From positions 1,851 through 65,850 of the forward strand of contig JAUZQO010000022.1 in NCBI GenBank assembly GCA_030950925.1: a stretch of DNA of 64,000 bases. Reading direction: 5' to 3'. The DNA is from Mariprofundaceae bacterium (GTDB lineage Bacteria > Pseudomonadota > Zetaproteobacteria > Mariprofundales > Mariprofundaceae). Shown here piece after piece: positions 3,125 through 39,400 of the stretch. A model generated the notes under the pieces. That model saw nothing but the letters and a program-made list of their open reading frames with translations. It made no database searches and had not been told where the DNA came from. How positions within the stretch are numbered: position 1 is the first letter of the stretch; each line of letters begins with the position of its first letter. Made by a program: the position numbers and the translations under genes.

Positions 3125-3139
3125 TGCGCGTGAAGTTCT

Positions 3140-3159
3140 CTCGGCATTAAAATACCGAG
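3140..3159 (-). repeat. IS200/IS605 right-end subterminal hairpin
   Basis: ctcggcattaaaataccgag has a 7-bp perfect stem (ctcggca/taccgag gives 6-7 pairs). It is the paralogue of the hairpin at 4190-4209 and lies downstream of the tnpB stop. Confidence 0.7.
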
Positions 3160-3238
3160 CATCAAACTGATGCAAAAGATTCCTGCTTCACGGAAGCGGC
3201 TTGTATTCTCTTGATAGAGAATACAGAGGTCGTCTTCT

Positions 3239-9918: not shown

Positions 9919-10042
9919 AGGTTTTCTCTCTTATTTTTTAATGATGGGTTAGAAAATTGGTATTGGATTTGCTTACTCCATGCATATTGGCAGTGATTCA
10001 CCGTTTATCGGTGCTATCTCATTCATTAAAAGGGGAGTTCGC

Positions 10043-12286: not shown

Positions 12287-12525
12287 AGCACTTAGCCGTT
12301 CCTTCAAGGCTTGAGCCGTCTCCAAATCAAAGCGTTCAGTTGAACCATATTCACGACGTTAAGACAAAGGAGGCGGCGCAAACTCAGGAATTGAGTGGCG
12401 TCGCACAGGTTTCAAAGCATGAATTAGCACCCTCATCCATCCGTGTTCCAAGTAAGACAACTGTTTTATCACGGGCTTCTTATGCTATAAAAATCTGCCG
12501 TTCTTTTGCTTCGAAGGTGATACGT

Positions 12526-16304: not shown

Positions 16305-16480
16305 AAAAGGTCATCATGTCTGGGTGTTTTTTATTGGATTCTTGCGAAAAAAGAGTGTCATCCCCGAATGCTTGTACCGGGGGTCTATAGGTAAGAAAGA
16401 TTCCCGATAGAATATTTTTGGGAATGATGGTTGGGCAAATATGGGATAATGAAAAAGACGATAAAATAGGAGCAAGGGCA

Positions 16481-19417
16481 ATGGATGAAGAGCTACTGAG
16501 TGAGTTTTTAACAGAAAGTAATGAGAATTTAGCATCCATTGAACAACAATTGATGGATTTGGAAATGCACCCCAGTAACGTGGACTTGTTGGATGGTATT
16601 TTCCGAGCGGTGCATACTGTTAAAGGCAGTTGTGGCTTTTTGGGCTTGGTGGGCTTGCAAAAAACAGCCCATGCAGGTGAAAACCTATTGGGGAAAATCC
16701 GTGCTACAAAATATTTGGTCAATGATGAAGTGGTGTCTTTACTACTTGAGTGTACCGATGGTATCAAAGCCTTGTTGGAAGGTTTGGAAGCTGAAGGTGC
16801 TGAGCCAGATTTGGATCACAGTGATTTGATTGAACGTTTGCATATCGCAGAACGTATGGTGGAAGATTTTTCAACATCGGCTAAACACAAGGCTTCAGAA
16901 GAGCTTGAGGAAGCAGTGCAAAACCTTGATTGGTTGGGTGAGTTTGATCCGCTGGTGTTGACGACCTTAAAGGGTGCGAAATTGTTCACAGCGCAAGATA
17001 TGATAGATGCTGGTTTTGCCCGTTTGCGAGAGACGGATGGTTTAACCCCTGCGGATGCTTTGAAGATTTTAGGGGTGGCTAAAAAAACATTAAAAGCAGC
17101 ACCCATGGTCGTCAAGCATGTGGCGAAGTCTGAATCAAAAAACAATGTTGAAGATCATCCTAAAAATATAGGGGAAGAGGACTGTAAGCCCCCAAGTAAG
17201 AAGGGAAAATTGGTATCAGCTTCGCCCCAAACTGCTGACAAATCTGCCGCAAAATCTCAAACGCCCAAAGCGACAAATACACCGGTGAAAGCCGTGCCTA
17301 AAACTGGTAGCAAGCAACAACGTTCGAAAAGTGCCGGCAGTATTCGTGTTGATATTGAACTGTTGGATAGTTTGATGAACCAAGTGGGTGAATTGGTGCT
17401 GACGCGGAATCGTTTGATGCAGATGATGATGAGCTCTGGCAATATGGCATATGTGCGTGTGAGTCGGGATGTGGATCATATCACCGAACAATTGCAGGCA
17501 CAGCTATTGCGCACCCGTATGCAACCCATTCAAAGTGTCTGGAGCAGTATTCCGCGTATTGTTCGAGATATGGGCAAGCAATTGGATAAGAAAATTACTG
17601 TCATTATGGAAGGCGAAGAAACAGAGCTAGATCGCACTATTCTCAATGCGCTGAAAGATCCTTTGACGCATATTATTCGAAACAGTTGTGACCACGGCAT
17701 TGAAATGCCTGATGAAAGGCGGAATGCTTCAAAACCAGTTGAAGGCACATTGAAACTATCGGCTTCGCAAGAATCAGGATTTATTGTCATTTTGATTGAA
17801 GATGATGGGGCTGGTATTGATGCCTCGCGTGTGAAAAGTAAAGCGGTGTCGATGGGGGTTCTGACAGAAGATCAAGCTGCGATTATCAGTGATAAAGCTG
17901 TCTTGCAGTTGATTTTTCATGCGGGTTTATCCACAGCGGAACAAGTGAGTAATTTATCTGGACGTGGTGTTGGCATGGATGTGGTGCGCACAGAGATTGA
18001 AAAAGTGGGTGGTTCAGTGGATATCAGCAGTGAACGCGGCGTGGGTACAACGTTACGCATTCGTATTCCACTGACCTTGGCGATTATTTCAGCCATGATT
18101 ATAGGCTGTGATGGTCATCGTTTTGCCATTCCTCAAATGAGTGTACGCGAACTATTGAATGCACCTGCTGATTCCAGTGAATGGCGTTTGATTGGTGGGC
18201 AACCATTTTATCGTTTGCGGGGTAAACTCTTGCCCGTGATGCGTTTGAAGGAAGTGTTGGAATTTAAACAGAATGTGGACAATGAAGGCTCGATTGTGGT
18301 GGTGGATATTGGTGATCGCACCTATGGCGTGTTGGTGGATGAAATTTTTGGTGCTGAAGAAATTGTGGTCAAACCTTTGGGTATCCATTTCCAACAAACA
18401 CGTTTTTATGGTGGGTGTAGTATTTTGGGTGATGGTGTGGTGATTCCTATTTTTGACTGCAATGAATTGGCATCTTTGATGAAATTATCACAAGAAGCTG
18501 AGGCTATTCAACATTTGGAAGAGGAAAAAGAAGTCTCTATGCACGAGCTACAGCACACCTTGGTATTTGCTGAGGGTGGGCAACGTTTTGCGATTCCCAT
18601 GGCATTGATCGAACGCTTGGAATGCTTTCCTGAAAAGAAAATTGAACATTCTGGAAGTTCTGAAGTACTTCAATACCGTGATGATGTGATTGCTGTACTG
18701 CGTTGGAGTGCTTTGATTGGTGGGCATCGAGATATTTCCCCCGATGATAGTGTCTATGGTCTTATTTTATCTGATGGTTATAAATGCTTGTGTCTGCAAG
18801 TGGAAGAAGTCGTGGATATTTTAGAAATACCTTTGGATATAAAAATGACATCAGACAATCCTTTGTTTTTAGGCACGTCGGTGATTGAAGATCTTGCCAC
18901 TGAAGTGGTGGATGTATTTGAAGTGGTAAAACAAGTGGATCCCAATTGGTTTTCACGCAATAAGAGTGTGGCATCCACTGAAGAGTTTGCAGTACCGACT
19001 ATTTTATTCGTTGAAGATGCTACTTTTTTTAGAAACTTGGTTATACCTGTCTTGGATACATTGGGTTATGAGACTTGGGTGGCGAAAGATGGTTTAGAAG
19101 CTTGCGCGATTTTGGAAGATAAAATCCCCGACTTGATTCTCACCGATTTAGAAATGCCGAATATGGATGGTTATGGCTTGTTGGATTGGGTGAAAGATCG
19201 TCCAGAGTTGTCGGCTGTGCCTGTGGTGGCGTTAACGGCAACACCCATTGATGAAATACCTGTTGAATCCCAGAAAAAGTTTCGTGATGTGATGATTAAA
19301 TTTGATCGGCAAACATTGACCGAAGGTTTGAAGCTTATCATGGATGATATACAAAATAAGAAGCCATTCAGTGTGGAAGGTGAATTGATTTCTAGCACTG
19401 TGACACAAGGAGATTGA
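16481..19417 (+). CDS. cheA: Hybrid chemotaxis histidine kinase CheA (Hpt, basic linker, dimerisation/HATPase, two CheW-like domains, C-terminal receiver)
   Basis: Hpt AVHTVKGSCGFLG, N box NSCDHGIE, G1 EDDGAGID and G2 SGRGVGMD. Two CheW-like modules (HRFAIPQMSVREL... and QRFAIPMALIERL...) are followed by ILFVEDATFFRN...DLILTDLEMPNMDG. ATG 16481 follows AGGAG. Confidence 0.9.
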   Translation: MDEELLSEFLTESNENLASIEQQLMDLEMHPSNVDLLDGIFRAVHTVKGSCGFLGLVGLQKTAHAGENLLGKIRATKYLVNDEVVSLLLECTDGIKALLEGLEAEGAEPDLDHSDLIERLHIAERMVEDFSTSAKHKASEELEEAVQNLDWLGEFDPLVLTTLKGAKLFTAQDMIDAGFARLRETDGLTPADALKILGVAKKTLKAAPMVVKHVAKSESKNNVEDHPKNIGEEDCKPPSKKGKLVSASPQTADKSAAKSQTPKATNTPVKAVPKTGSKQQRSKSAGSIRVDIELLDSLMNQVGELVLTRNRLMQMMMSSGNMAYVRVSRDVDHITEQLQAQLLRTRMQPIQSVWSSIPRIVRDMGKQLDKKITVIMEGEETELDRTILNALKDPLTHIIRNSCDHGIEMPDERRNASKPVEGTLKLSASQESGFIVILIEDDGAGIDASRVKSKAVSMGVLTEDQAAIISDKAVLQLIFHAGLSTAEQVSNLSGRGVGMDVVRTEIEKVGGSVDISSERGVGTTLRIRIPLTLAIISAMIIGCDGHRFAIPQMSVRELLNAPADSSEWRLIGGQPFYRLRGKLLPVMRLKEVLEFKQNVDNEGSIVVVDIGDRTYGVLVDEIFGAEEIVVKPLGIHFQQTRFYGGCSILGDGVVIPIFDCNELASLMKLSQEAEAIQHLEEEKEVSMHELQHTLVFAEGGQRFAIPMALIERLECFPEKKIEHSGSSEVLQYRDDVIAVLRWSALIGGHRDISPDDSVYGLILSDGYKCLCLQVEEVVDILEIPLDIKMTSDNPLFLGTSVIEDLATEVVDVFEVVKQVDPNWFSRNKSVASTEEFAVPTILFVEDATFFRNLVIPVLDTLGYETWVAKDGLEACAILEDKIPDLILTDLEMPNMDGYGLLDWVKDRPELSAVPVVALTATPIDEIPVESQKKFRDVMIKFDRQTLTEGLKLIMDDIQNKKPFSVEGELISSTVTQGD

Positions 19418-21048: not shown

Positions 21049-21882
21049 ATGACAATACGTTCGGATTTATTTACTTATTTACAAGATTTTTTGTTGCGGC
21101 GCAGTGGTTTGATGTTGGCAGATGATAAGGCTTACTTGATACGATCACGAGTGCAGGTATTGCTGCGCAAGTTTGATATTGCAGATATTAACACCTTGGT
21201 GATGCGGATTAAACGTCAAGAAACAGGTGATATTGCAAAAGCCCTGATTGATGAAATGACGACCAATGAAACCTTGTTTTTCCGTGATAAGTATCCTTTT
21301 GAAGCATTGAAAAAGATTATTTTCCCTGCTTTGAATGATACGGGAGGGATGCATTCGCCTGTAAAAATATGGTCGGCGGCATCATCGCGTGGGCAAGAAC
21401 CTTACTCCATTGCCATGACGGCGGCTGAAGCATTACCCAATGCAACACAACGGGTGAAAATTTTGGCAACAGATTTATCCGAGCAAGCTGTGAACTATGG
21501 TCAATCAGGCATTTATTCTCAAATTGAAGTCAAGCGTGGTTTGGGTGAAAAACAATTGTCACGATTTTTCTCTAAACAAGGAGAAACATGGCAGGTACGC
21601 CAAGATTTAAAGCGTATGATGACTTTTCAAGAGGCAAATTTAGTGGATGATGCTGTGGTGATGCGAGCTCGTAGTTATGGACCATTTGATATTGTTTTTT
21701 GTCGGAATGTTTTGATTTATTTTTCACCTGAAGAACGAAAAAATGTGATTGATCGCTTGGCTAAAACCATGAAGCCACATGCTTATTTATTGACTGGAGC
21801 AGCCGACCGTGTGATAGGTCATGCTTCAAAATGGAAATCTACGATGTTTCAAGGTAAGCGCATTTGGCAGTTACAATCATGA
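21049..21882 (+). CDS. cheR: Chemotaxis protein methyltransferase
   Basis: TNETLFFRD, the SAM-binding IWSAASSRGQEPYSIAM and FDIVFCRNVLIYF. Confidence 0.9.
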   Translation: MTIRSDLFTYLQDFLLRRSGLMLADDKAYLIRSRVQVLLRKFDIADINTLVMRIKRQETGDIAKALIDEMTTNETLFFRDKYPFEALKKIIFPALNDTGGMHSPVKIWSAASSRGQEPYSIAMTAAEALPNATQRVKILATDLSEQAVNYGQSGIYSQIEVKRGLGEKQLSRFFSKQGETWQVRQDLKRMMTFQEANLVDDAVVMRARSYGPFDIVFCRNVLIYFSPEERKNVIDRLAKTMKPHAYLLTGAADRVIGHASKWKSTMFQGKRIWQLQS

Positions 21883-21953
21883 TGCAACATGAATGCAAGT
21901 TCTTTTTTGGAAACCAATAGTTTCCTCGCTACGGTGGGAATGGATTCTTGCTA

Positions 21954-24722
21954 CTATTGTAGTGGAACCTTGCCAACCAAGGATTTCACTGTTTGAAGAA
22001 TCTCGTCACCTTTTAGTTGCTGTTTTACCATATAAGTATCAGCGCCTGATTCAAGCGCACGCATGCGATCTTCGACACTTTCACGTGTTGAAATAATCAT
22101 CAATGGTAAATTTTCATAACGTGATTGGTTACGAATGCGACGAACCAAACCAAAGCCATCCAAACGAGGCATTTCCAAATCAGTGACAACCATATCATAC
22201 GTTTTGACCTGTAATTTTTCCAAAGCATCCAAACCATCAATGGCAGTATCGACTTCAAAACCGATACTTTCAAAGATACTTTTCTCAACTTCACGCGCAA
22301 TCAGTGAGTCATCCACCAATAAGATATTAAAATGAAGCTTATCATCTTCTTTGACATGAATTTCGATATGTTGATCGGGAGAAGTGCGTCCCATTTCCTT
22401 GATGCCATAGGGTTCTAAAAGCATGATGACGGAACCATCGGAAGCAATGGTGTTGCCCATCAGACCTTGAGGGTTATAACGTTTGATGTATGGATCGAGG
22501 TCACGCACCACAATTTCAATATCATCCAACAGTTCATCCACGACGATACCAACATAGCCTTCAATATGTTCGGCAATAATAATGTTCCCTTTCTTTTTTT
22601 CTGGCGTGGCATCGCTGTTGCCTAAGACATGACGCATATCCACAAGAGGGACTTGATAGTGTTCGTAAAGAATAAATTCTTTGCCATCACTGCTTCGTTG
22701 GACCTGTGTGGTATGATAAGGAATGGCTTGTTCTACCATATGGGTCAGCATACCAAAACGCATATCACCCATGCGAAATATCAAGGCAAATTGAACAGCA
22801 ATACTGACAGGAATGGATAGAATAAAGTTTGTACCCTTCCCAACCTCACTTTGAATACGAATGGAGCCTGTCAGACGACGCACAGTATCTTGCACCACAT
22901 TCATGCCGATTCCACGTCCTGAAGTGGCATCCACCGTCTCTCTTGTGGTGAAACCTGGGCGAAAAATCATTTCAAGGATTTCAGCCGAATCCATTTGATC
23001 GGCTTCGACTTGGGTGGTAACGCCTTTAGAAACGGCAGATTTTTTGATGATTTCAGTATCTAAGCCACGTCCATCATCCATAATTTCAATACGAATTTCA
23101 CTACCATTTTGTTGTGCAATAATGGAAACTTGCCCTTCTTCAGGTTTACCCGCTGCCAAGCGTTCTTTGGGTGACTCAATGCCATGGGCTACGGCATTGT
23201 TTAGCAAGTGAACAAGCGGTTCAACCAAGGACTCGGTAACGCCTTGGTCCATTTCCAATGTTTTGCCACCAATCACCAAACTTACACGTTTATTCAAGCG
23301 GATTGCGACATCTCGAATGGCTCGTGGAAAGGTAGAAAAAATATTATCCAAAGGACGTAACATGAGTGCAAGCACCTGATCACGAAGATCGCGCATCATA
23401 TATTCATTGCGAATGTTAGAAAAACGAACGTCTTCAATAAAACGTCGTTGTTGGCGTGCTTGTTGTTCAAAACCGATATTCAGTTGTTGTAACAGTTGCT
23501 TGCTGGCTTTTGCATCCAATTCATCTGCTGATTTTTCAAAGTGCTGAAAATCACGTTGTAATGTTCGAAAGTCCTTGGATAGGCGTATAAATTGGGTTTC
23601 GAAAGCTTCATCTCTTGCTTGCTGGGTACTCAATTCAATGACTTGGTTGGATAGGTTCTCCAAGCGCTCTGCATCAACCCGTAAAAAACGCCCTGAACTT
23701 TTACGTTGAGCCGTTTTATTCATTTCCATTTGTTCAATATTGGGACGGAATGAAGAAGCATCCGAATCTAACTTAGCTTCTTTAAGGGCGATTTGACGGG
23801 GGGCTTCTGTGAAAGTGGGGCGTACTTCAGTACCTGCAAGCACTTCTATATTTGCAATGTCTACTGCCGTTTCATGTTTTCTGGGTTCGATTTCTGATAC
23901 AGTTTGAGAAACGGAAGTGCAGTCAAGGGTGGAGACACGTGCTGCCTCGGTCGCAAGGTTGGCTTGTTGCTGTTTTTTCCAAGCCTCTGCTTCACCAGCC
24001 CCGATAAGTTCAGTAGTGGGTACTTTTTCTGATAGATTGACGATGGGTTTTGAGTCCGAAGTGCCTATCAAATCAGTGTTTGATGTACGGTCATCAAGAT
24101 CCAATACGGGGACTTCCTCTATGCTTTCAAAGGAAATTTCATCGCCACTAAGCCAGCCATCTAAATCTGGAAAGTCTTCAATCATATCAATGTCAATGGT
24201 GGTGATATCATCATCTTGATTTTCTCTATCCAATGAGTCAATCAAGAGGGGGGTTTCTTCTTCTGTAGGCTTTGAAATTGTCGGTAAAGGAACAAGGTTG
24301 TCAGGTGTTGAAATGGGGGCAGCCATAGGTTTGTCAATATGGTCTATGAGTTTCTGTTGACTGGCTTGTAAAGGTCCAGCCTCAATCAATTGTTGAGCAT
24401 CTGGATCTTTTAGACGGTCATCTAAAGCATCATGAATATCATAAAGAAATTGAATCATGGCTGGTTCTTTTCGCCAGCTTGGATGCTTCATCAATTGTTC
24501 CATCATATCTTCGAAAATATGAGCAGCCTCACCAATATCAGTGACGCCCAACATGAGAGCAGAGCCTTTGATGGTATGGGCATCACGTCGCAAAGCGACC
24601 ATACCTTCTTCTGTTAAGTCACCCGCCTCAAATTTGACCAAGGCTTGGTTAATCGAACTAAGTCGTTCACGAGCCTCATCAAAGAAGGAGGCTAAAAAAT
24701 TGGATAAGTCAAAACCTGACAC
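21954..24722 (-). CDS. cheA: Second hybrid CheA (Hpt, long acidic linker, HATPase, CheW-like domain, C-terminal receiver)
   Basis: Hpt DAHTIKGSALMLG, NNAVAHGIE, MDDGRGLD, SGRGIGMNVV, the CheW-like MRFGMLTHMVEQAI... and the receiver ILLVDDSLIARE...DMVVTDLEMPRLDG...YMVKQ. Confidence 0.9.
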   Translation of the reverse strand: MSGFDLSNFLASFFDEARERLSSINQALVKFEAGDLTEEGMVALRRDAHTIKGSALMLGVTDIGEAAHIFEDMMEQLMKHPSWRKEPAMIQFLYDIHDALDDRLKDPDAQQLIEAGPLQASQQKLIDHIDKPMAAPISTPDNLVPLPTISKPTEEETPLLIDSLDRENQDDDITTIDIDMIEDFPDLDGWLSGDEISFESIEEVPVLDLDDRTSNTDLIGTSDSKPIVNLSEKVPTTELIGAGEAEAWKKQQQANLATEAARVSTLDCTSVSQTVSEIEPRKHETAVDIANIEVLAGTEVRPTFTEAPRQIALKEAKLDSDASSFRPNIEQMEMNKTAQRKSSGRFLRVDAERLENLSNQVIELSTQQARDEAFETQFIRLSKDFRTLQRDFQHFEKSADELDAKASKQLLQQLNIGFEQQARQQRRFIEDVRFSNIRNEYMMRDLRDQVLALMLRPLDNIFSTFPRAIRDVAIRLNKRVSLVIGGKTLEMDQGVTESLVEPLVHLLNNAVAHGIESPKERLAAGKPEEGQVSIIAQQNGSEIRIEIMDDGRGLDTEIIKKSAVSKGVTTQVEADQMDSAEILEMIFRPGFTTRETVDATSGRGIGMNVVQDTVRRLTGSIRIQSEVGKGTNFILSIPVSIAVQFALIFRMGDMRFGMLTHMVEQAIPYHTTQVQRSSDGKEFILYEHYQVPLVDMRHVLGNSDATPEKKKGNIIIAEHIEGYVGIVVDELLDDIEIVVRDLDPYIKRYNPQGLMGNTIASDGSVIMLLEPYGIKEMGRTSPDQHIEIHVKEDDKLHFNILLVDDSLIAREVEKSIFESIGFEVDTAIDGLDALEKLQVKTYDMVVTDLEMPRLDGFGLVRRIRNQSRYENLPLMIISTRESVEDRMRALESGADTYMVKQQLKGDEILQTVKSLVGKVPLQ

Positions 24723-24740
24723 AAAAAATATCGAAAGAGA

Positions 24741-26198
24741 CTAAATGAGTTTCTGCAGATCATCTGCCACATCATTCAGTCGATAGGATGCATCACGTGA
24801 TTTATCCATTTGTGCAGCAGAATCTTGTAGAAGATCAGAAATTTGACGCATGGTCAGCACAAACTCTTGGGAACTCTCATCTTGGCGTTTGGTGGCTTGG
24901 GCAATGGTGCGCACTGCCTGACTGGTTTTTTCAGACATGGATTTCATCTTGCTGAGGGATTGACCAGCATTCTGGGCAACACTCACACCCTTATCCACTT
25001 CCTCCAGTCCTTTTTTGGTGACTTCAATGGATTCTCGTGTTGATTTATTTACATCATCCACCACAATCTGAATTTCTTCGGTGAATTGACGCGCACGTTC
25101 AGAGAGACGGCGTACTTCTCCTGCGACAACGGAGAAGCGTTTACCAAATTCTCCAGCAGCAGCCGATTCAATGGATGCGTTGAGTGCCAGAAGATGGGTT
25201 TCATCGGCCAGTTCTTGCAATGCACCGAGTGATTCTAAAATTTGTTCGGATTTTCGCCCTGAGTCGGTCACCTTTTCTGCAATGAGTGCCACTTCTTTAC
25301 GAATACGTTCCATATAACCAATGGTTTCATTCACGGCTTCAGCACCTTCTTCAGCAGAAAAAGCAGTGGCGGCAGCAATCCGTTCCACGCTTGCAGCGGT
25401 GGTCGCGATTTTCTTGGCAGAACCAGACATCTCTTCCAACTCCATGGTTACACCTGCCACGGATTGAGCCTGTGTTGATGATGCTGTTGCCTGACTATCG
25501 ACTGCGGTAAGAATTTCTGAGGATGCATGACTCACACCTTCGGACATTTGACCAATGGCACCTGCAATATTGGTGACAAAGCTACGGTTGAAAAATGCCA
25601 TGACGAATACAATGAAAATAATGATGCCCACATTAATCATGGAGTACAGTTGAATTTGATTTTCTTTGGCACTTTGCTCGGTGGACAGTGATGTCGCAAG
25701 CTGGGTTGCCACACTGTTCAGCTTATCTTGGGCTACAAATACAAGGCTTTGTGCGACAACGGTGACATTACTTGCCATTTGAGTAGGAATTTTTCCACTG
25801 GTGATGTCCTGTGAAATCTTGATCACTTCTTGCATCAAATCATGGACTTCTTTGAGCCTTTTAATATCAGCAACTTGGAGTGAAGGCATGGCAGATACTT
25901 GAGTGTATAATTTTAGGAACGCATTGGATGCCTGCTTGATTTTTCCAATATCTTCTTTGTTACCCGTCAGTGTAAAGTCATTCAAAGGCAACAATACATT
26001 GGGAAGGGAGGCACGAAAACTCTCTAGGGATGTTTGTTGGCTGTTGAGTGCGGAAATTTGATTGATGCCTTCAGAAGCTCGGTTAAATGCAAAGAATACG
26101 GTGCCAATAAGAACGGCAAACAATGCAATAGAAATAAGCGTGTTCCGACGCGCCAGTTGTCGGATACTGATTACAGTACGTTTTTGCTCGTCTGTCAT
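24741..26198 (-). CDS. Methyl-accepting chemotaxis protein (two TM, short signalling module)
   Basis: The signalling hairpin is [41 protein letters not shown]. The start is chosen at MTDEQKRTV; the track start 26261 is possible but unsupported. Confidence 0.85.
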   Translation of the reverse strand: MTDEQKRTVISIRQLARRNTLISIALFAVLIGTVFFAFNRASEGINQISALNSQQTSLESFRASLPNVLLPLNDFTLTGNKEDIGKIKQASNAFLKLYTQVSAMPSLQVADIKRLKEVHDLMQEVIKISQDITSGKIPTQMASNVTVVAQSLVFVAQDKLNSVATQLATSLSTEQSAKENQIQLYSMINVGIIIFIVFVMAFFNRSFVTNIAGAIGQMSEGVSHASSEILTAVDSQATASSTQAQSVAGVTMELEEMSGSAKKIATTAASVERIAAATAFSAEEGAEAVNETIGYMERIRKEVALIAEKVTDSGRKSEQILESLGALQELADETHLLALNASIESAAAGEFGKRFSVVAGEVRRLSERARQFTEEIQIVVDDVNKSTRESIEVTKKGLEEVDKGVSVAQNAGQSLSKMKSMSEKTSQAVRTIAQATKRQDESSQEFVLTMRQISDLLQDSAAQMDKSRDASYRLNDVADDLQKLI

Positions 26199-26303
26199 AA
26201 TAATTCCCCTCAATGTGTAACTGACTTCGAATGATACGAATGGTGATAAATTTAGCTGCATATTGACGATTAAATATTATTTAATCAAGTAAGTGTGTCT
26301 GCT

Positions 26304-26783
26304 TTATTTAAACAAGGCTGCCGTATGAAGTATTCGGTAGTCTTGGTTTTTGATGTTTAAACTCCGATAGAAAAATCCCTGTGAACCTTGTGTTGCCTGT
26401 AGAAAAGTTTCTTCTGGAATGGGTTCAAGTGATAAAATTTCTTCTGTGCGCAAGGCAAGATGCATTTTGGGATGACTAAGGACAATGAAACGCACGCTAT
26501 CATCAAATGTTTGCTTACTGTAGGGTAAAGCCATCACCTGACAAGGGTCAATCACACACACTACCTGACCATGAATATTGCAAACACCCAATAAGTGGTC
26601 TGGCGCCATGGGTACAGGGGTTAAGCGTTGCCGATGAACCACTTCGGATACATCAGAAACGGGAATAAGAATAATTTCTTGACCCACACGAACCTGCATA
26701 ACTTCTACGTAAGTTTGATTAAAATTAGTATGAATCTTTTCTGTGGGTCGAGAACTGGGGGGGATACTGGTTTGAGGAGACAT
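26304..26783 (-). CDS. cheW: CheW-like coupling protein
   Basis: VMQVRVGQEIILIPVSDVSEVV...PMAPDHLLGVCNIHGQVVCVIDP. It starts 3 nt after the upstream ATPase stop. Confidence 0.8.
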   Translation of the reverse strand: MSPQTSIPPSSRPTEKIHTNFNQTYVEVMQVRVGQEIILIPVSDVSEVVHRQRLTPVPMAPDHLLGVCNIHGQVVCVIDPCQVMALPYSKQTFDDSVRFIVLSHPKMHLALRTEEILSLEPIPEETFLQATQGSQGFFYRSLNIKNQDYRILHTAALFK

Positions 26784-26786
26784 GAC

Positions 26787-28988
26787 TTACATCCTTTGTT
26801 GAATAGCCGAAGCGATTCGAGCATACATAGAAAGAATTTTTCTAACACGTGCTTGTAATTTCATAGGCTCAACGGGTTTTCCGATATAGTCATCTGCGCC
26901 TGATTCCAAGCCAAAAACTTCATCCTCTTCATCTTTTCTTGAGGTTAGCATGACCACGGGAATGTGGTCATAGGCGGCGTTTTCGCGGATTTTTTTCACC
27001 AGTTCAGGACCATTCATGTTGGGCATTTCGAAATCGGTCAAGACAAGGCTGATGCTGCTGCTGAGCCGCTGCAAGGTATCCCACCCCTGCTGACCATCTT
27101 CGGCATCCAAAACATCGTAACCTTCTGATTGTAAGACAAACTTCACTAAGCTTCGAATGCTTTTGGAATCATCCACAATCAATACAGTTTGTTTGCCTGT
27201 GTATAAGTTTTCTTGGTTATGCGCCTTATCTTTTTGACGTATGCTCTCGCCTACAGACATAAGAGATCCATCGTCAGCGAGACGTTGATCAAGGCGGAAG
27301 CCTTCTGGAGGGCTTGAATTGCGAATGACTTCTTCAATACTGGTGATGCCAGACAAAGCCTTGTTGATGCCATCCTCAAACAAGCAAAACATACCATCTT
27401 CACGCGCCGCTTGCATCAAATCTTGATCGGGTGCTTCGCGTGAAATCATTTCACGCATGCGGTCATTCACATACAATACTTCATGGATACCAAGACGACC
27501 CTTATAACCAATATTCATACAGGCTTTGCAGCCAACAGCTTCATAAAACTCTAAACCTTCAGGGACACCATAACGCTCGCAAAATTCAGGATTGGGGCGT
27601 GCTTTTCTCTTGCACTTGGGGCATAGGCGACGTGCCAAACGTTGTGCAACAATGAGGTTGAGTGAGGAGGAAAGCATGGTGGACTTGATACCCATTTCAA
27701 TCAAGCGGGTGATGGTTGAAGGCGCATCATTGGTATGCAGTGTGGATAATACCATGTGTCCTGTTTGCGCCGCATGCAAAGCAATTTCAGCGGTTTCTTC
27801 ATCACGAATTTCACCCACCATGACAATGTCGGGATCTTGTCGCAAAATAGAACGTAGTGCTGCACCAAATGTCATACCAGCCTTGGCATTCACTTGTACT
27901 TGATTGATGCCTTTAAGTTGAAATTCCACGGGGTCTTCAACGGTAATCAAGTTGCTTTCTTCTTCATTGATATGGTTCAAAAAGGAATAAAGTGTGGTGG
28001 TTTTTCCAGAACCTGTAGGTCCTGTCACCAACACTGCACCCGTTGGCTTGGTGATGGATTCACGAACACGTTGATCAGCCAGTTTCTCAAAGCCAAGGAT
28101 GTCTAAATCCAAGGATAAACCGCTTTTATCCAAAATACGCAACACCGCTTTTTCACCATAAAATGAAGGGAGAATAGATACACGCATATCATAGGCTTTA
28201 CCCCATAATTTGATGCGGGTGCGACCATCTTGTGGCGTGCGTGTGTTGGAGATATCTAGTTTGGAGGTGATTTTTATGCGCGAAATAACAATGGGATGGG
28301 CTTTAACAGGAAACTGCAAAGCAATTTTCAAACGCCCGTCCACACGCATACGTACAATACTGGTACGTTCACCTGCTTCAATATGAATATCTGATGCACC
28401 CAGTTTAAGTGCTTGTACCATAATACCATTGACCAACTTGATAATGGGCGATTCATCGGCACCCTTTTTCAGTGCATCAATGTCATCATCGTGTTCAGGA
28501 TCGTCTTCCGTGGCAAAGCTAGCATCATCATCCAAGCCTGACATAGCATCGTCAAAAGCTGCGTTGCCTTGGTAAACATCACGTATTTTTTTCTGAATGG
28601 CATCGGGGCGTGCAAAAATAGTCTTGACCCGCTCCCCCAATTTGAATTGCAAGGAATCCAATGCCGAGAAATTCATGGGGTTGCCTGTGGCAATCACCAA
28701 CTCACCATTTTGAAAATCAATGGGGATAAAATTGTAATCCAAACATAGTTTTTCAGGGCAACGCTCTATCAATTCATCGCTAGGGCGTATGTTGGTGATA
28801 TCCAAAAAGGGCACTTTATAAATGCGCGCCAATGTTTGTACAATGGCTGAGCTATCAATGCCTTCTAGACCAAGGAGAGAATATAAAAGACCGTGCTTTT
28901 GGGTGTCAGGGTGCTGTAGAGCATCTTTAATTTGCTCTTGGGTGGCAACGCCACTTTCAATCAACTGTCGTTGTTGTTTCAGTAGCAT
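26787..28988 (-). CDS. PilB/GspE/MshE-family secretion ATPase fused to a C-terminal CheY-like receiver domain
   Basis: T2SSE_N-like N-domain, Walker [11 protein letters not shown], Asp box ITVEDPVE, Walker B DPDIVMVGEIRD, His box LSTLHTNDA and the tetracysteine CPKC...CKAC. This is followed by TVLIVDDSKSIRS...LVLTDFEMPNMNG...VVMLTS...GKPVEP, a complete receiver. Confidence 0.85.
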   Translation of the reverse strand: MLLKQQRQLIESGVATQEQIKDALQHPDTQKHGLLYSLLGLEGIDSSAIVQTLARIYKVPFLDITNIRPSDELIERCPEKLCLDYNFIPIDFQNGELVIATGNPMNFSALDSLQFKLGERVKTIFARPDAIQKKIRDVYQGNAAFDDAMSGLDDDASFATEDDPEHDDDIDALKKGADESPIIKLVNGIMVQALKLGASDIHIEAGERTSIVRMRVDGRLKIALQFPVKAHPIVISRIKITSKLDISNTRTPQDGRTRIKLWGKAYDMRVSILPSFYGEKAVLRILDKSGLSLDLDILGFEKLADQRVRESITKPTGAVLVTGPTGSGKTTTLYSFLNHINEEESNLITVEDPVEFQLKGINQVQVNAKAGMTFGAALRSILRQDPDIVMVGEIRDEETAEIALHAAQTGHMVLSTLHTNDAPSTITRLIEMGIKSTMLSSSLNLIVAQRLARRLCPKCKRKARPNPEFCERYGVPEGLEFYEAVGCKACMNIGYKGRLGIHEVLYVNDRMREMISREAPDQDLMQAAREDGMFCLFEDGINKALSGITSIEEVIRNSSPPEGFRLDQRLADDGSLMSVGESIRQKDKAHNQENLYTGKQTVLIVDDSKSIRSLVKFVLQSEGYDVLDAEDGQQGWDTLQRLSSSISLVLTDFEMPNMNGPELVKKIRENAAYDHIPVVMLTSRKDEEDEVFGLESGADDYIGKPVEPMKLQARVRKILSMYARIASAIQQRM

Positions 28989-29108
28989 AAGAATAGGTGC
29001 CTTGGAAAGTTCTTCATTAGCACGTCACCTTACTGAGCCATATCACGAAAATCAAGAATGATATGGGCTGCTCGTGATTTATGCGTATAATATCGTTACT
29101 GTGCCGCG

Positions 29109-30434
29109 ATGTTTCGATATTTCTTTATTATTATGATGATCGCATTGGGTTTGTTCTTGGAAGGTTGTAGTCACCCTTTGGCTTTATCTGTGTTGCCAGA
29201 TCAAAGTGTGTCGCCCAAAGGTGATGTTTTGGAGGCTGATTCAGATGTTTTATTCGAGCCTGTAGATAGGCTAGCTCTCGAACCTACTCAAATCACTACA
29301 AGACCCGCTTATCACTTGAGTTCACCGTTTTTTTCAGGGGTTCGCAGTGATGATTTGGCTTGGGCAGAGGCACAGGTTAAAGCTTCACTCTCGAGGCATT
29401 GGCATGTTTTGGCAGAGCGTTCTACGTGGGTTCGCGAGCGGGTTCTTAAAGGTCTCGAGGATGCTGGCGCTCCCCGAGATTTACAGGTCATTCCGATTGT
29501 GGAATCGGCGTATCAGCCTTATGCTTTATCACGCACGGGTGCGATGGGCTTATGGCAATTGATGCCCAAAACGGCCTATGGCTTGGGGGTACGTGATACC
29601 CAAGCGGGTGATGGTCGGCGACATGTGGAAATATCCACACGCGCAGCAGCGCAATATTTGATGCAGCAACGCAAAAGATTTGGTAATTGGGTGCTGGCTT
29701 TTGCAGCTTATAATATGGGACCGTATGGCTTAGCCAAGCATTTGAAAAAATCCCCATGGCAACTATCGGATGGGATACGGCATTTACCCGTGCCCAAAGA
29801 GACGCGAAATTATGTCATGCGTATTTTGGGGGTGACAGCCTTGTTGCATTTGCATGTTGTGGCATTTCCTCAAGAGATGAGAACCACGAAAGTGACATTA
29901 TTACCACCGATTGATATTCGAATTTTGGAGAAGCGTTTAAAATTATCACACCATGATTTGTTTCGACTTAACCCACAGTTGTATTACAGTCAGTATTTCC
30001 AACATGCGGTGAGTATTCATGTGCCGAATACATTGCTGGATCAATTACACTATGGTAGTGAACAGCAGCAACCGCATGATATTCATGTACGCATTCGTTC
30101 GGGTGATTCTTTATGGCGGTTGGCTCGTACATACCACACGACTACGAAACACATCAAGGCTTTGAACCCACACCTTTCCAAAATTTTACATATTGGTCAG
30201 CGCATTAAAGTGCCTGCACATGGCTATGCACGGGCAACGGCGAGTATAAACCCTTTGCTTTCAAAAGGGCGGCGCATTCGTTATAAAGTACGCAAAGGCG
30301 ATTCTTTGTGGAGAATTTCACATCGATTTGGGACGACAACCCATGCTATTTCACGTTCCAATCAATTATCAAAACATCATATTTTACGACCAGGAGATAC
30401 CTTATGGATTCTTGCACGCATTCGCTCAAGCTGA
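29109..30434 (+). CDS. mltD: Membrane-bound lytic murein transglycosylase D-like lipoprotein (SLT domain + 2 LysM)
   Basis: Lipobox LFLEGC, SLT catalytic region IPIVESAYQPYALSRTGAMGLWQLMPKTA, and two LysM repeats (HVRIRSGDSLWRLARTY...IKVP and YKVRKGDSLWRISHRF...). Confidence 0.8.
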   Translation: MFRYFFIIMMIALGLFLEGCSHPLALSVLPDQSVSPKGDVLEADSDVLFEPVDRLALEPTQITTRPAYHLSSPFFSGVRSDDLAWAEAQVKASLSRHWHVLAERSTWVRERVLKGLEDAGAPRDLQVIPIVESAYQPYALSRTGAMGLWQLMPKTAYGLGVRDTQAGDGRRHVEISTRAAAQYLMQQRKRFGNWVLAFAAYNMGPYGLAKHLKKSPWQLSDGIRHLPVPKETRNYVMRILGVTALLHLHVVAFPQEMRTTKVTLLPPIDIRILEKRLKLSHHDLFRLNPQLYYSQYFQHAVSIHVPNTLLDQLHYGSEQQQPHDIHVRIRSGDSLWRLARTYHTTTKHIKALNPHLSKILHIGQRIKVPAHGYARATASINPLLSKGRRIRYKVRKGDSLWRISHRFGTTTHAISRSNQLSKHHILRPGDTLWILARIRSS

Positions 30435-32071
30435 TTGCTTTATGTGTGGTGCTGGGTTTGGCAGCCTGCTCCTCTGAACCTGAATCTCATCTGCAAACGC
30501 AACACAGCGAAACCGTCGATATGAGTCCTGCCTATGGTGATCGCTTGGTCACGGCATCCATTGGCGATGCCAGCACCTTGATTCCCATGCTTGCTGGCGA
30601 TTCATCCAGCCATACCATTGCAGGTCAGTTGTATCAATCCTTGTTAAAATTTGATAAAAATTTACACATTGCCAATCAACTCACGGCATCTTGGCAAGTC
30701 TCCGATGATGGCTTGTCGATTACTTTTCATTTGCGCCCTAATATATCTTGGACAGATGGTGTTGCTTTTACCTCCCAAGATTGTGCATTTACACTGGCAT
30801 TGATTCAAGATGACCATACGCAAAGTGCCTACAAATCGGATTACGCTAAGGTCACAAGCTTTGAAACACCCGATGCCCAGACTTTTATCGTGCATTATGA
30901 TATGGTTTATTCACCTGCGCTTTCGACATGGGCAGGTCTTTCGATTTTACCCAAGCATATCTTTGAACACCAAGATATTATGAAAACCGACTTGGCACGT
31001 CACCCGAAAGCTACCATGGGGCCTTATATTTTGAAGGATTGGCAGTCTCAACAGTCTATCACCTTAAAAGCCAACCCCCATTATTATGGTGGTAAAGTAT
31101 GGGTTGCCGAACATTTAACGCGCATTATCCCAGATACTGCCACGCAATTTTTGGAGTTAAGTGCAGGGCATATTGATGAAATGGGTTTAACACCAACACA
31201 ATATAAACGCTTATTTGAAACAAAATCATTTTTAAAGATAAATTATCAGCGTTATCACTATCTTGAATCGGTATATACGTATTTGGGTTTTAATTTGAAA
31301 CGCCCGCTATTTGCCGATCAACGTGTTCGTGAAGCCATGGCCTATGCCATTGACCGTCAGGAATTGATTGATGGGGTGTTACTGGGGCAAGGGGAGATGA
31401 TTGCCTCACCGTATAAACCAGGGACAGCATGGGTGAATACATCCTTACATCCACGCGCATTTAACCCTGAAAAAGCCAAAATATTGTTGGCGCAAGCGGG
31501 TTGGAAAGATAGCAATGGCGATGGTATTTTGGATAAAAATGGTCAACCTTTATCATTCACCATCATCACCAATAATGGTAATAAACAACGTGCAGACACC
31601 GCGACAATCATCCAACAGCGATTAAAGCAAGTTGGCATTCAAGTGAAAGTACGTTTGATTGAATGGTCAGCATTTATTGAAAACTTTATCAACAAACGTG
31701 ATTTTGATGCGGTGATTTTGGGTTGGTCACTGACACCCGAACCCGATCAATACAATATTTGGCATTCCTCTCAAACAGGTAAACGTCAGTTTAATTTTTT
31801 AAGTTACAACAATGCCAAAGTGGATGAAGCTTTGATCAAAGCCACGCAAACTTTTGATGAAAGCAAACGCAAACAATGGTATGACATCATGCAAAAGGAA
31901 ATTTATCAGGATGTACCGATGGTGTTTTTATATGCGCCGTATTCACTTCCCGTGGTGCATAAGCGTTTTCAAGGCATCAAACCAGCCCCTTCGGGCATTG
32001 GCTACAACAGTGAATTTTGGTATGTCCCCAAAGGTTTTCAGAAGTATCAAGTGCCAGCGATGCAGCCATAA
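30404..32071 (+). CDS. ABC transporter substrate-binding lipoprotein, family 5 (peptide/nickel type)
   Basis: The start at MDSCTHSLKLIALCVVLGLAACSSEP gives a lipobox LAAC. Length and internal pattern (LVTASIGDASTLIPML..., FTSQDCAFT..., ILGWSLTPEPD) are those of DppA/OppA-like SBPs. It overlaps the mltD-like end by 31 nt. Confidence 0.8.
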   Translation: MDSCTHSLKLIALCVVLGLAACSSEPESHLQTQHSETVDMSPAYGDRLVTASIGDASTLIPMLAGDSSSHTIAGQLYQSLLKFDKNLHIANQLTASWQVSDDGLSITFHLRPNISWTDGVAFTSQDCAFTLALIQDDHTQSAYKSDYAKVTSFETPDAQTFIVHYDMVYSPALSTWAGLSILPKHIFEHQDIMKTDLARHPKATMGPYILKDWQSQQSITLKANPHYYGGKVWVAEHLTRIIPDTATQFLELSAGHIDEMGLTPTQYKRLFETKSFLKINYQRYHYLESVYTYLGFNLKRPLFADQRVREAMAYAIDRQELIDGVLLGQGEMIASPYKPGTAWVNTSLHPRAFNPEKAKILLAQAGWKDSNGDGILDKNGQPLSFTIITNNGNKQRADTATIIQQRLKQVGIQVKVRLIEWSAFIENFINKRDFDAVILGWSLTPEPDQYNIWHSSQTGKRQFNFLSYNNAKVDEALIKATQTFDESKRKQWYDIMQKEIYQDVPMVFLYAPYSLPVVHKRFQGIKPAPSGIGYNSEFWYVPKGFQKYQVPAMQP

Positions 32072-35162: not shown

Positions 35163-36547
35163 ATGAATGTCCTTTCTGATGGATTGACCCTTCGTGGTAA
35201 GCCATTGCAAGAGCGACACGAACCGCTTTATGCCGAACACCCGTTACAAGCATGGCAAGGCTTATTGCAAGCGCGTGAATTACAAGAATCTGATGCGTTT
35301 TTTCGCCCCAATTAAGTCAACTTCCCAATCCTTTGTTGATGCAAGATATGGAAAAAGCAGTGCAACGTGTGGTGACTGCCATTCAAACAGGTGAATCAAT
35401 TCATATTTTTGGTGATTTTGATTGTGATGGTGTATCAGGCACGACAATTTTGCTTGAGGCATTGTTGGCAGCAGGGGCAACGGTGACTTCATCCATCCCC
35501 CATCGGGCATGGCATTGGTGTCCAACCTGTGCAAGAAGCCGTGGCATCTGGTGTGGGTTTGGGGATTAGCGTGGATACGGGTACGACCTGTTTTGCAGCC
35601 TGTGAAGAAGCCAAACGACTGGGCTTGAATTTGATTATCACCGACCACCATTTACCCGATAAACATTTGCCCAAAGCTTTTGCCTTGCTCAATCCTGCGC
35701 GTGAGGATTGTGGTTTTTCTGAGCGTAAACTTTGTGGAACTGGCGTGGCTTTTTTTCTATTGATGGCAGTGTGGCAATGCTTGAGGCGACTTGGAGAACC
35801 TCCTGGCTATGATTTGCGTCTATTATTGGATCGTGTGGCAGTCGCAACGGTTGCAGATATGATGGATTTAGTGGGCGTGAACCGTATTTTGGTGGCGTAT
35901 GGTTTGCAACAATTGAACCATTCACCTTGTGTGGGGATGTCGGCTTTGATGAAGGTGGCGAGAGTGCGTGGCAAAGTCACTGTCGAAACCATTGGTTTTT
36001 ATATTGCCCCACGCATCAATGCTGCTGGGCGCATGCAACATGGTGATGTAGCCATGCGTTTCTTGTTATCGAGCGATATGGAAGAAGCCAATGCTTTGGC
36101 GAATCAATTGGATGAAATGAATAAACACCGACGTAACATTGAAATAAAGGTGTTGCAGCAAGCCACAAATCTATTGGGTGAAAAAAAACAGAACAATGGA
36201 TTGATGGTGTATTAAGCTTATCGGCTCTGCATATTGGTTTCGCGCATCGCGTGCAACAGTTTGAACCCATTGGTCGTGCCAACCCTGCTATTTCTTGGTT
36301 GATTCAGGATGTGCATGTGTCGGAACGTAAAGATTTGAAAGGTGGTGTGATGCAATTGACCTTAAGTGATGGACAATATTATCTATCAGCCATTGTATTG
36401 GGTGGCAGTGTGTTCAGTGCCAATTTACAGCTTGGAATGATGATTTCAGTGGTGGGGCAGTTGAAACCTGATGATTGGAAAGGTGACGATGCCATTCAAT
36501 TTGAAGTGGATGATGTATGGGTGAATGAAGTGGTTTTAACCGCCTGA
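35163..36547 (+). pseudogene. recJ: recJ single-stranded-DNA 5'-3' exonuclease, disrupted (two frameshifts and loss of the DHHA1 domain)
   Basis: RecJ-like segments sit in three frames. They are MNVL...ESDAFFRPN* (stop 35313); PQLSQLPNPLLMQDMEKAVQRVVTAIQTGESIHIFGDFDCDGVSGTT...SSIPHR; GHGIGVQPVQEAVASGVGLGISVDTGTT...LIITDHHLP...GTGVAFFL...APRINAAGRM...LLGEKK (stop 36213); and IDGVLSLSALHIGFAHRVQQFEPIGRANP...FEVDDVW. The region carrying the DHHA1 GGH motif (about 115 aa by comparison with 577-aa E. coli RecJ) is absent. Confidence 0.8.
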
Positions 36548-38253
36548 TTTTGAATACAATTTACAATATCTTCTGGTGATACAGGTTTGGATAAAAAAGC
36601 ATTCATGCCTGCTTCTTTGGCTTCATCAATCAGCGATGATAGCGCGTGTGCACTCAAGCCAATGATAGGCATGGATAGATTGTTTTGACGGATAGCGCGA
36701 GTTAATGCCATACCATCCATTTTTGGCATATGTAAATCAGTGAGCATGGCATCATAGCAACGTTTTTCAAGAAGTTCTAAGGCTTCTAAACCATTGGATG
36801 CAACATCCACATGCATGCCAGAGCGTTGAATGCTTTTGCTAGCAATGCGTTGGGCAATGCGATCATCTTCCACCAATAAGATAGATAATGTTTTCTCAAT
36901 ATCGTTTGGCGCGTGCCCCTGTTTGGATAGATAGTGCTTCGGTGGCATAAGCTCTTGCATGCCCCAAGATAATTCGTGGATGTCTTGCGAAGATGATAGG
37001 CAAGGTAATGTGAAGGAAAAGCAACTTCCTTGTCCAATCTGACTGATGAGTGCAATCTTACCGCCAAGAAGTTCAACGCATTGTTTGACAATTGTGGTGC
37101 CTAGACCTGTGCCTTGGCGTTGTTTTTTGGATAAGTCACATTGATGAAAAGGCTCAAAAATCGATGATTGTTCTGCTTCTTCAATGCCAATGCCTGTATC
37201 CTTAATGGCAAAGAGCAGTTGATTTGACTGCAAGGATACATGGACATTAATATATCCAGATTCAGTAAACTTCACAGCATTACTCAAGAGATTGAGAAGT
37301 ATTTGACGCAAGATTTTTTGATCTGACATGATGTTTCTAGGCACATGCTGCATGCGTAAACGGAGTTCAATGCCTTTTTGTTGAGCTTGAAAAATAAAGG
37401 GTAAGATGGCTTCACGCAATAAGGGTAAAGTCCCTACTTTTTTTTGTTCAACCATCATTTTCCCTGATTCTATTTTTGCTAAATCCAACACGTCATTGAG
37501 TAAATCTTTGAGTATATGGGATGAATGCAATGCCAATTGCAATGACTCACGTTGTTCGGTTGTCCAGTTTTGAGAATCTTGGCTTAAAAGATCTTGCATA
37601 CCAATAATACCATGTAGTGGCGTACGTAAATCATGGCTCATGGTGGATAAAAAGTGACTTTTGGCCTGACTCGCATGCTGAGCCTGTGTTAAAGCCGTTT
37701 CTACTTGTTTCTGTTGAGAAATAATAATTTGTTCTGTTTGTTCCAGATAACGTACAAAAATATAGGAAATAATACCCATAAAGAAGGTGGCTAACATGAT
37801 AAAGGAAATTTCACCAAGGTTATAAAACAATGTAACATAGCCTAAATGTGCAGCGATGATACTCAATAGCATAAGTACTGAATAAATCATAAGCCAAAAA
37901 ACACCAATGCGCGTACCACCCAAAATAAAAAGAAGAATAGGGATACAGGGAATCCAGTAAATTCCGGTATTTTCAAAGCTTTCAGTGATAAGTAAGGGTG
38001 AGCAAATAGCAACACCACCAAAAAGTGCGAGGTGAACATGCCATGTTTTAAGACCACCTCTTTTCAAAGAAAAAAAACTGATGGTGACGGCAAATAAAGC
38101 AATGGCATCAGTCACTGCACCAATGTAAATATGCTGATAAATATCGAAAGCAAGGAAAAAACTTAATGTAAGGACATTGACCAGTAGAGAGTAATATAAA
38201 AACTCATCACGTGTTTGATGGAGTGAAAAATAACGTGGATCTTCAGTAGACAT
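36496..38253 (-). CDS. Hybrid sensor histidine kinase (multi-TM sensor, HisKA, HATPase, receiver)
   Basis: Five to six N-terminal TM helices. H box SHDLRTPLHGIIGM, N box LLNLLSNAVKFT, G1 KDTGIGI and G2 GTGLGTTIV. The receiver is ILLVEDDRIAQR...DAMLTDLHMPKMDG...FLSKP. Confidence 0.85.
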   Translation of the reverse strand: MSTEDPRYFSLHQTRDEFLYYSLLVNVLTLSFFLAFDIYQHIYIGAVTDAIALFAVTISFFSLKRGGLKTWHVHLALFGGVAICSPLLITESFENTGIYWIPCIPILLFILGGTRIGVFWLMIYSVLMLLSIIAAHLGYVTLFYNLGEISFIMLATFFMGIISYIFVRYLEQTEQIIISQQKQVETALTQAQHASQAKSHFLSTMSHDLRTPLHGIIGMQDLLSQDSQNWTTEQRESLQLALHSSHILKDLLNDVLDLAKIESGKMMVEQKKVGTLPLLREAILPFIFQAQQKGIELRLRMQHVPRNIMSDQKILRQILLNLLSNAVKFTESGYINVHVSLQSNQLLFAIKDTGIGIEEAEQSSIFEPFHQCDLSKKQRQGTGLGTTIVKQCVELLGGKIALISQIGQGSCFSFTLPCLSSSQDIHELSWGMQELMPPKHYLSKQGHAPNDIEKTLSILLVEDDRIAQRIASKSIQRSGMHVDVASNGLEALELLEKRCYDAMLTDLHMPKMDGMALTRAIRQNNLSMPIIGLSAHALSSLIDEAKEAGMNAFLSKPVSPEDIVNCIQNQAVKTTSFTHTSSTSN

Positions 38254-38393
38254 AGGTTATTTTTTGCAAGGCAAGCGTATGAGCATTCGAGTTTTTGATA
38301 CTGGGTAGGATTATAATACCCCCCTGAAATTTCAATAGGAATTAGACTTAAATATTTGTGTAGATGCCTGTGACCTTTAGGCTGGGGAGGATG

Positions 38394-39398: not shown

Positions 39399-39400
39399 GG

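Follow-up and report, generated by a model that had tools for sequence, protein, structure and literature searches.

A PilB-like ATPase fused to a receiver domain heads a chemosensory operon in Zetaproteobacteria

A 64,000-nucleotide stretch of DNA from a marine, iron-oxidising bacterium of the Mariprofundaceae (Zetaproteobacteria; GenBank assembly GCA_030950925.1, contig JAUZQO010000022.1, positions 1,851 to 65,850), here called the window, encodes a 733-amino-acid (aa) protein in which a PilB-like ATPase continues into a C-terminal CheY-like receiver (REC) domain. The gene lies at 26787..28988 on the reverse strand and is the first of an operon that goes on with a CheW coupling protein, an MCP (methyl-accepting chemotaxis protein) and a hybrid CheA kinase. 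We refer to the protein as ATPase-REC and to the four genes as the cassette. On balance, ATPase-REC is probably a hexameric filament-assembly ATPase of the PilB type and, at the same time, the response regulator of this minimal MCP-CheW-hybrid CheA pathway.

Five observations carry this reading: the architecture of the protein, its conserved catalytic and phospho-acceptor residues, the operon linkage, the recurrence of the four genes as a module, and a relative of the fused ATPase that heads a pilus operon. Taken together, comparisons across lineages lend good support to the view that fusing the receiver to the ATPase hard-wires the output of a chemosensory pathway.

The fused gene and its operon

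The open reading frame (ORF) runs from ATG to stop, and Pfam recognizes three domains along it: MshEN (PF05157; aa 57-141, E 2.7e-20), T2SSE (PF00437; aa 177-556, E 5.9e-138) and Response_reg (PF00072; aa 602-716, E 4.8e-28). The T2SSE match covers profile positions 3-370 of 370 and scores 460 bits (cut-off 24.9), and the receiver match scores 98 bits (cut-off 30.2). By this profile match, ATPase-REC is a member of the T2SSE or GspE-PilB-PilT superfamily (PF00437). The protein starts with an MshEN-type N-domain that lacks the motif for binding cyclic di-GMP (c-di-GMP) (aa 1-145; 28554..28988, like all parts of the gene on the reverse strand). The ATPase core (aa 177-556; 27321..28460) carries a Walker A motif (aa 323), an Asp box (VEDPVE, aa 350), a Walker B motif (DPDIVMVGEIRD, aa 385), a His box (LSTLHTNDA, aa 414) and a tetracysteine Zn site (CPKC at aa 456, CKAC at aa 487). 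A linker (aa 557-600; 27189..27320), consisting of a conserved PPEGF segment and then a variable helix, leads to the receiver (aa 601-732; 26793..27188). The latter has a full phospho-acceptor site, with the motifs LIVDDS (aa 603), LTDFEMP (aa 650), MLTS (aa 680) and GKPVEP (aa 703). An earlier note, made from the letters of the window, had named these ATPase and receiver motifs in a 733-aa ORF and put the receiver at about nt 26790-27195; all of them were located in the translation, and the receiver maps to about nt 26793-27188. A protein from a Mariprofundaceae metagenome-assembled genome (MAG) is 100% identical (P0001).

The three-domain order is shared by 120 of the 120 best homologues (59-100% identity); those with species names come from Mariprofundus ferrooxydans, M. 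micogutta and Ghiorsea bivora, and the others are also zetaproteobacterial. In an alignment of 66 sequences of the Zetaproteobacteria family (59-90% identity), the ATPase residues K329, E351, D352, E393, R395, D396, H411 and H418 are invariant, as are the Zn cysteines C456, C459, C487 and C490, several arginines of the N2 domain, and the receiver residues D606, D607, D652, T682 and K704. In the linker, P561, E562 and F564 are nearly invariant. The AlphaFold2 model of the protein (mean predicted local distance difference test score (pLDDT) 80.4, predicted template-modelling score 0.61) shows (beta-alpha)5 topology, beta1 to alpha5, over aa 601-732, preceded by a linker helix at aa 579-597 (pLDDT about 72-87). 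Matches of the receiver among PDB sequences are the receivers of CheY, CpxR and PhoB. Judged by its residues and predicted fold, the fused receiver is of the phosphorylatable type, and the acidic pocket on which the earlier note had made its claim depend is predicted to be in place (D606, D607 and D652, in a modelled (beta-alpha)5 fold).

The genes that follow lie on the same strand. CheW (159 aa; 26304..26783; PF01584, E 1.1e-20) starts 3 nt past the ATPase-REC stop, and after it come the MCP (506 aa; 24741..26261; PF00015, E 2.7e-29) and the hybrid CheA (922 aa; 21954..24722), in which Pfam finds Hpt (P1), HATPase_c, CheW and Response_reg domains. The four genes are co-directional and separated by gaps of 3, 42 and 18 nt, an arrangement that ORFs and Pfam domains confirm as the earlier note had described it. 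A scan of 21700-29200 for promoters and terminators gave counts not above those of shuffled sequence. In the MCP, two transmembrane segments (aa 39-57 and 202-220) enclose about 145 periplasmic aa, and a HAMP domain is absent. The chemosensory core is thus complete (MCP signalling domain, CheW and CheA, with all Pfam matches above cut-offs). Pfam finds no stand-alone or single-domain response regulator among the cassette's genes, which leaves the fused receiver and CheA's own receiver as the only acceptors on offer.

What kind of ATPase this is can be approached from its relatives. A sequence search of the PDB returns Myxococcus and Geobacter PilB as the closest solved structures. Foldseek gives a template-modelling (TM) score of 0.83 and 49-50% identity for Geobacter PilB, and a TM score of 0.75 and 49% identity for Vibrio EpsE; the core alone does not tell PilB from GspE. 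The type of N-domain is what separates PilB-like sequences from GspE, and the MshEN-type domain here aligns to the N-domains of Geobacter, Thermus and Myxococcus PilB/PilF. Similarly, the top NCBIfam match is the PilB model TIGR02538 (623.4 bits, aa 7-558), the GspE model TIGR02533 scores 566 bits in a match that starts only at aa 86, and against the PilT family model the protein reaches no more than 190 bits, where the cut-off is 319. The protein also has the traits of extension-type ATPases (PilB/GspE, not PilT), namely a tetracysteine Zn subdomain and an N1-type N-domain.

The cassette and the fusion across lineages

A search of genome contigs with very specific patterns taken from the query protein gave three true relatives, the remaining matches being unrelated proteins that share the receiver only. 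In the Zetaproteobacteria, the order ATPase-REC, CheW, MCP, CheA-REC is found in six loci of six (the window, L001, L002/L003, L004, L005 and L006), even though the ATPases are as little as 61% identical and the genes on either side are not the same. A complete deltaproteobacterial genome (L029; ATPase 38% identical) has these four genes in this order too, and a Syntrophobacterales MAG (L112/L113; ATPase about 38% identical) has the cassette plus a second CheW and a CheB. CheW holds the same position in all cassette loci. Moreover, the window's cassette CheA scores 281 bits to the L029 CheA against 179 bits to its paralogue in the window (16418-19417), and the cassette MCP scores 112 bits to the L029 MCP against 70 to the window's other MCP. 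Since both proteins are nearer to L029 than to their own paralogues, the four genes move and evolve together. The proposal of the earlier note, that the fused receiver may be a hard-wired chemosensory output, gains comparative support from the six zetaproteobacterial loci and two deltaproteobacterial lineages, and further support from the want of any other stand-alone regulator in the cassette and from the invariant D-D-D-T-K set of the receiver.

The fusion reaches well beyond the cassette. Among 1.84 billion representatives of 50%-identity clusters, we sorted the best 149 non-self matches by architecture: 83 have a C-terminal receiver, 8 an N-terminal one and 11 are tandem double ATPases. 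A profile search adds many more fused proteins, from Deltaproteobacteria, Syntrophobacterales, Calditrichia and Thiohalorhabdus, which have been given various automatic names ('PilB', 'response regulator' or 'ATPase, T2SS/T4P/T4SS family'). By these matches the fusion is recurrent in many phyla and not a one-off. In a neighbour-joining tree of the ATPase core, computed without support values and from a sample biased by the receiver's own contribution to the search score, a receiver is present in 88 of the 100 leaves of one clade and in 1 of 40 in its sister group, and the Zetaproteobacteria sequences nest within the C-terminal-receiver clade. The tree is thus an indication that the C-terminal-receiver ATPases form one large, mostly coherent subfamily spread over many phyla.

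The genomic contexts of the subfamily are varied. In one locus (L031) the fused ATPase heads an operon with a prepilin peptidase (PilD), a PilC-type platform protein, a pilin, PilM, PilO, a secretin and a PilT-like ATPase; on this gene content, the subfamily includes bona fide pilus-operon ATPases. Elsewhere a stand-alone Hpt protein and a single receiver come after the fused gene (L030), or the gene stands between an Hpt protein and a 2036-aa multi-sensor kinase (L023). In Thiohalorhabdus (L024) the distance to a type II secretion system (T2SS) cluster, gspCDEFGHIJ, that has its own GspE is 2 kb, and in L026 a secretin gene is about 2.7 kb away, on the other strand and beyond two intervening genes. 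Five loci (L025, L027, L032, L033 and L034) show no recognisable partner. Where a signalling neighbour is present, it always offers an Hpt-type donor (the P1 domain of CheA, or free Hpt in L023 and L030), and an Hpt-type domain is the likely phosphodonor wherever a signalling partner adjoins the gene. A contrast set came from a search of metagenome contigs with the fused-family alignment, which, among the matches listed, added three fused loci; most of those matches were unfused PilB, and these unfused genes sit mostly beside pilC and pilT.

Several relatives depart from this architecture. Among the closest core relatives are proteins, about 1000 aa long, that contain two complete T2SSE cores in tandem (P0121-P0134, P0137, P0138 and P0153); on the tree, the two halves for the most part group apart. 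In others the receiver is N-terminal and precedes MshEN and T2SSE (P0166, P0168, P0195, P0217, P0219, P0239, P0250 and P0261), and most of these cluster away from the C-terminal-receiver clade. C-terminal-receiver ATPases from outside the Zetaproteobacteria, such as P0145, P0326, P0340 and P0347, can have zinc-ribbon or double-zinc-ribbon matches (PF13240, PF12773). The nearest unfused relative (P0150) lies in a Dot/Icm-like conjugation cluster; it is uninformative on function, and its placement probably reflects a weakness of neighbour joining.

Proposed mechanism and competing explanations

From architecture and linkage we infer a phosphodonor, a switch with its direction and mechanism, and a filament machine. 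The transmembrane MCP would sense a periplasmic cue and modulate the autophosphorylation of CheA on its Hpt domain (P1). The phosphoryl group would then pass from P1 to Asp652 of the ATPase-fused receiver, with CheA's own receiver acting as a competing sink or as a relay. Phosphorylation would switch the motor by altering hexamer assembly, ATP turnover or docking to the membrane platform. In this way, the signal would gate how a type IV pilus-like filament, with its genes elsewhere in the genome, is extended.

A second question is what the receiver replaced, if anything. A strict c-di-GMP-binding motif (tandem 24-residue RLGxx(L/V/I)(L/V/I)xxG(L/V/I)(L/V/I)xxxxLxxxLxxQ) and a relaxed version (PMC5013675) are both absent from 120 of 120 Zetaproteobacteria members, the query included, so that the MshEN domain of ATPase-REC is unlikely to bind c-di-GMP. 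In the wider set the motif is rarer in fused relatives (13/80) than in unfused ones (19/45; Fisher p = 0.0025). This absence fits, weakly, a receiver that took over from c-di-GMP as the regulatory input; the argument is weakened by the many ordinary PilBs that also lack the motif. Vibrio cholerae MshE (PMC5013675) offers a parallel, since its N-domain is of the same Pfam family and its regulatory module is likewise within the ATPase polypeptide. Unlike MshE, ATPase-REC has no RLGxxLLxxG motifs, and its cis input would be a phosphorylatable receiver at the opposite end. The same study names REC among the domain partners of MshEN, a combination that it did not pursue. Tentatively, the cassette may be a distinct and old chemosensory class with a filament-extension motor as its dedicated output, one in which a receiver in cis would have replaced c-di-GMP sensing by MshEN; we hold this extended version to be less likely than not.

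A number of results weigh against a PilB-type motor under chemosensory control. ATPase-REC misses the equivalog cut-offs of both family models (623.4 against 675.65 bits for PilB, TIGR02538; 566 against 630.25 bits for GspE, TIGR02533), which makes it a PilB-like paralogue and not a certified PilB. Pfam scans of essentially all ORFs of at least 150 aa found no pilin, PilC/GspF, PilMNOPQ, secretin or PilT in the 64 kb, and a six-frame search of the window for the prepilin leader motif gave no match. The earlier note had claimed this absence, and both scans bear it out; its description of the ATPase as an orphan holds within the window but not for the subfamily, as the L031 relative heads a complete type IV pilus operon. 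In 5 of the 13 non-Zetaproteobacteria fused loci (Syntrophobacterales copies counted separately), neither a machinery nor a signalling neighbour was detected. The core tree, as said, is only indicative. pilA is reported in some Zetaproteobacteria, North Pond MAGs included (bioRxiv 10.1101/668343; PMC5566968), and one North Pond MAG (NORP31, L004) is 98% identical to the window at the cassette locus. Yet pilA occurs in only about 40% of surveyed iron-oxidiser genomes (PMC5566968), and the cassette, unlike pilA, looks general in Zetaproteobacteria. CheA's own receiver could be the main acceptor. Finally, PilB of Myxococcus has a signalling link to exopolysaccharide production as well (PMC5544727), so that acting as a motor need not be all that a PilB-like protein does.

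The last point leads to the rival that survives best, although we judge it unlikely. That is, the fused ATPase may no longer drive a filament and may instead act as a phosphorylation- and nucleotide-dependent signalling protein or regulator, for example of exopolymer, holdfast or stalk export or of biofilm behaviour. Apart from the signalling role on record for M. xanthus PilB (PMC5544727), the sub-cut-off scores and the lack of machinery genes beside the ATPase, here and in most fused loci, agree with such a regulator. So does Sfz2, a protein of the candidate stalk-formation cluster of Zetaproteobacteria, which joins an N-terminal 'EpsE-like T2SS' domain (IPR007831) to a GT2 glycosyltransferase (PMC8250860). 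IPR007831 is the MshEN family, so that Zetaproteobacteria use an MshEN-type N-domain in at least two different fusions. On the other hand, the catalytic, Arg-finger, His-box and Zn-site residues are all invariant, as expected for a working motor, a complete pilus operon (L031) has a subfamily member at its head, and no polysaccharide genes lie beside the cassette in any locus.

It is decidedly improbable that ATPase-REC is a signal-gated ATPase with a GspE-like role, through which chemosensory input would control protein secretion by a T2SS and not pili. A core that is 49% identical to EpsE, and so equal to Geobacter PilB in this respect, would suit this role, as would the 566 bits to the GspE model and the Thiohalorhabdus gene 2 kb from gspCDEFGHIJ. 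The N-domain, though, is of the MshEN/PilB type, and the match to the PilB model is full-length whereas the GspE model joins only from residue 86. Moreover, the Thiohalorhabdus cluster has its own GspE, and the sole fused member within a machine operon accompanies PilM, PilO and PilT, which are pilus components.

A fused receiver that is a mere phosphate sink or a localisation pseudo-receiver, the real output being for example CheA's receiver or a distal regulator, is very improbable: its five phospho-acceptor residues are invariant, hence it is not a pseudo-receiver, and the fusion is kept without CheA, beside stand-alone Hpt (L023, L030) or within the pilus operon (L031), a pattern that would make no sense unless the receiver controls the ATPase to which it is joined. 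What speaks for it is general knowledge of hybrid CheA-REC systems, where, as with PilH and CheY-sink systems, extra receivers often serve as phosphate sinks. There is also the case of FimX, in which a non-phosphorylatable REC is required for localisation (PMC11656802).

Surroundings, known systems and meaning

Immediately beside the cassette lies a gene for a family-5 solute-binding protein (window 29109-32071, forward strand; L001 6896-9849). A solute-binding protein also adjoins the deltaproteobacterial cassette (L029 19411-22166; 37% identity, 292 bits), and ABC permease genes adjoin the cassette in L002 (6983-8820) and L029. In E. coli, the chemoreceptor Tap senses through the binding protein DppA. 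By analogy, the cassette MCP may sense its ligand through such a binding protein, which we offer as an idea only.

A second che cluster stands nearby, in the order MCP (9980-12286), an ORF that we call X, CheA-REC (16418-19417), CheW, CheB and CheR. X (12340-15930, forward strand; 1196 aa) has no match in Pfam, NCBIfam or the PDB. About seven hydrophobic segments fall within its aa 123-420, and one helix has an Arg at every third position (LRIARLFRGMYMLRMLRIF), resembling the S4 helix of voltage sensors; from these features X looks like an ion-channel-like membrane protein within a chemosensory operon. At 2669-3694 on the reverse strand, a 151-aa remnant of an IS605-type OrfB/TnpB (with a Cas12f1-like TNB domain) adjoins a GDP-mannose 4,6-dehydratase ORF; the latter matches its profile over positions 84-223 of 332 only, as if an insertion had broken the gene. 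A row of genes at 36496-41569 (reverse strand) encodes a hybrid histidine kinase (MASE6 sensor, C-terminal receiver), a CBS-GGDEF protein and polyphosphate kinase, and adds another signalling hub to the neighbourhood of the two che clusters.

Compared to known systems, the ATPase itself is most like PilB (Geobacter, Myxococcus, Thermus PilF), with which it shares the MshEN-type N-domain, N2, and a C-terminal ATPase domain with Walker A and B motifs, Asp and His boxes and the tetracysteine Zn site. It differs in its additional C-terminal receiver (about 130 aa) and 45-aa linker, in its score under the TIGR02538 cut-off, in having no adjoining pilC or pilT, and in the absence of the c-di-GMP motif of the Myxococcus, Chloracidobacterium and MshE types. 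The pathway recalls the Pil-Chp system of P. aeruginosa (PilJ, PilI, ChpA, PilG/PilH; PMC12632253) in that, on the reading proposed here, an MCP, CheW and hybrid CheA-REC would serve a pilus and not flagella. Chp, by contrast, works in trans by way of the single-domain regulators PilG and PilH, with cyclic AMP playing a part, whereas the receiver of the cassette is part of the motor. The cassette CheA has one detected Hpt domain, not many as in ChpA, and the zetaproteobacterial cassette has no PilK/ChpB adaptation enzymes; in all, Pfam finds none of the defining Pil-Chp set (PilG/PilH, multi-Hpt ChpA, PilK/ChpB) in the cassette. With Wsp (WspA-F and WspR) and alternative-function pathways, the cassette shares a hybrid CheA-REC and a receiver-enzyme output in one operon. 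Unlike Wsp, it is smaller, its output is a secretion-superfamily ATPase and not a GGDEF cyclase, and in the fused protein the output domain comes first, with the receiver on its C-terminal side. Defining features of both Pil-Chp and Wsp are thus missing from the cassette.

A literature search found no description of a PilB-receiver fusion, nor does a 2024 review on how PilB is regulated speak of one. As databases already show the architecture, it cannot be called categorically new. Nevertheless, a fusion this abundant in environmental bacteria, for which no study was found, may be a widespread means of controlling pili or secretion that has been overlooked.

How signals travel from chemosensory systems to type IV pilus motors is unsettled; in Pseudomonas, PilG and PilH act in trans, and their contacts are unclear. 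The natural fusion provides a one-polypeptide system in which phosphotransfer, ATPase activity and hexamer structure are measurable with and without BeF3-, and the operon names the candidate cognate kinase for the fused receiver. If the extended version is true, phosphorylation gates the hexamer directly, and no shorter route from a chemoreceptor to a pilus motor would be known. Zetaproteobacteria must hold their position in opposing gradients of iron and oxygen. The fusion points to a signal-controlled attachment or motility device in these bacteria and, if the extended version holds, the cassette would steer how they attach or move on surfaces in Fe(II)/O2 gradients.

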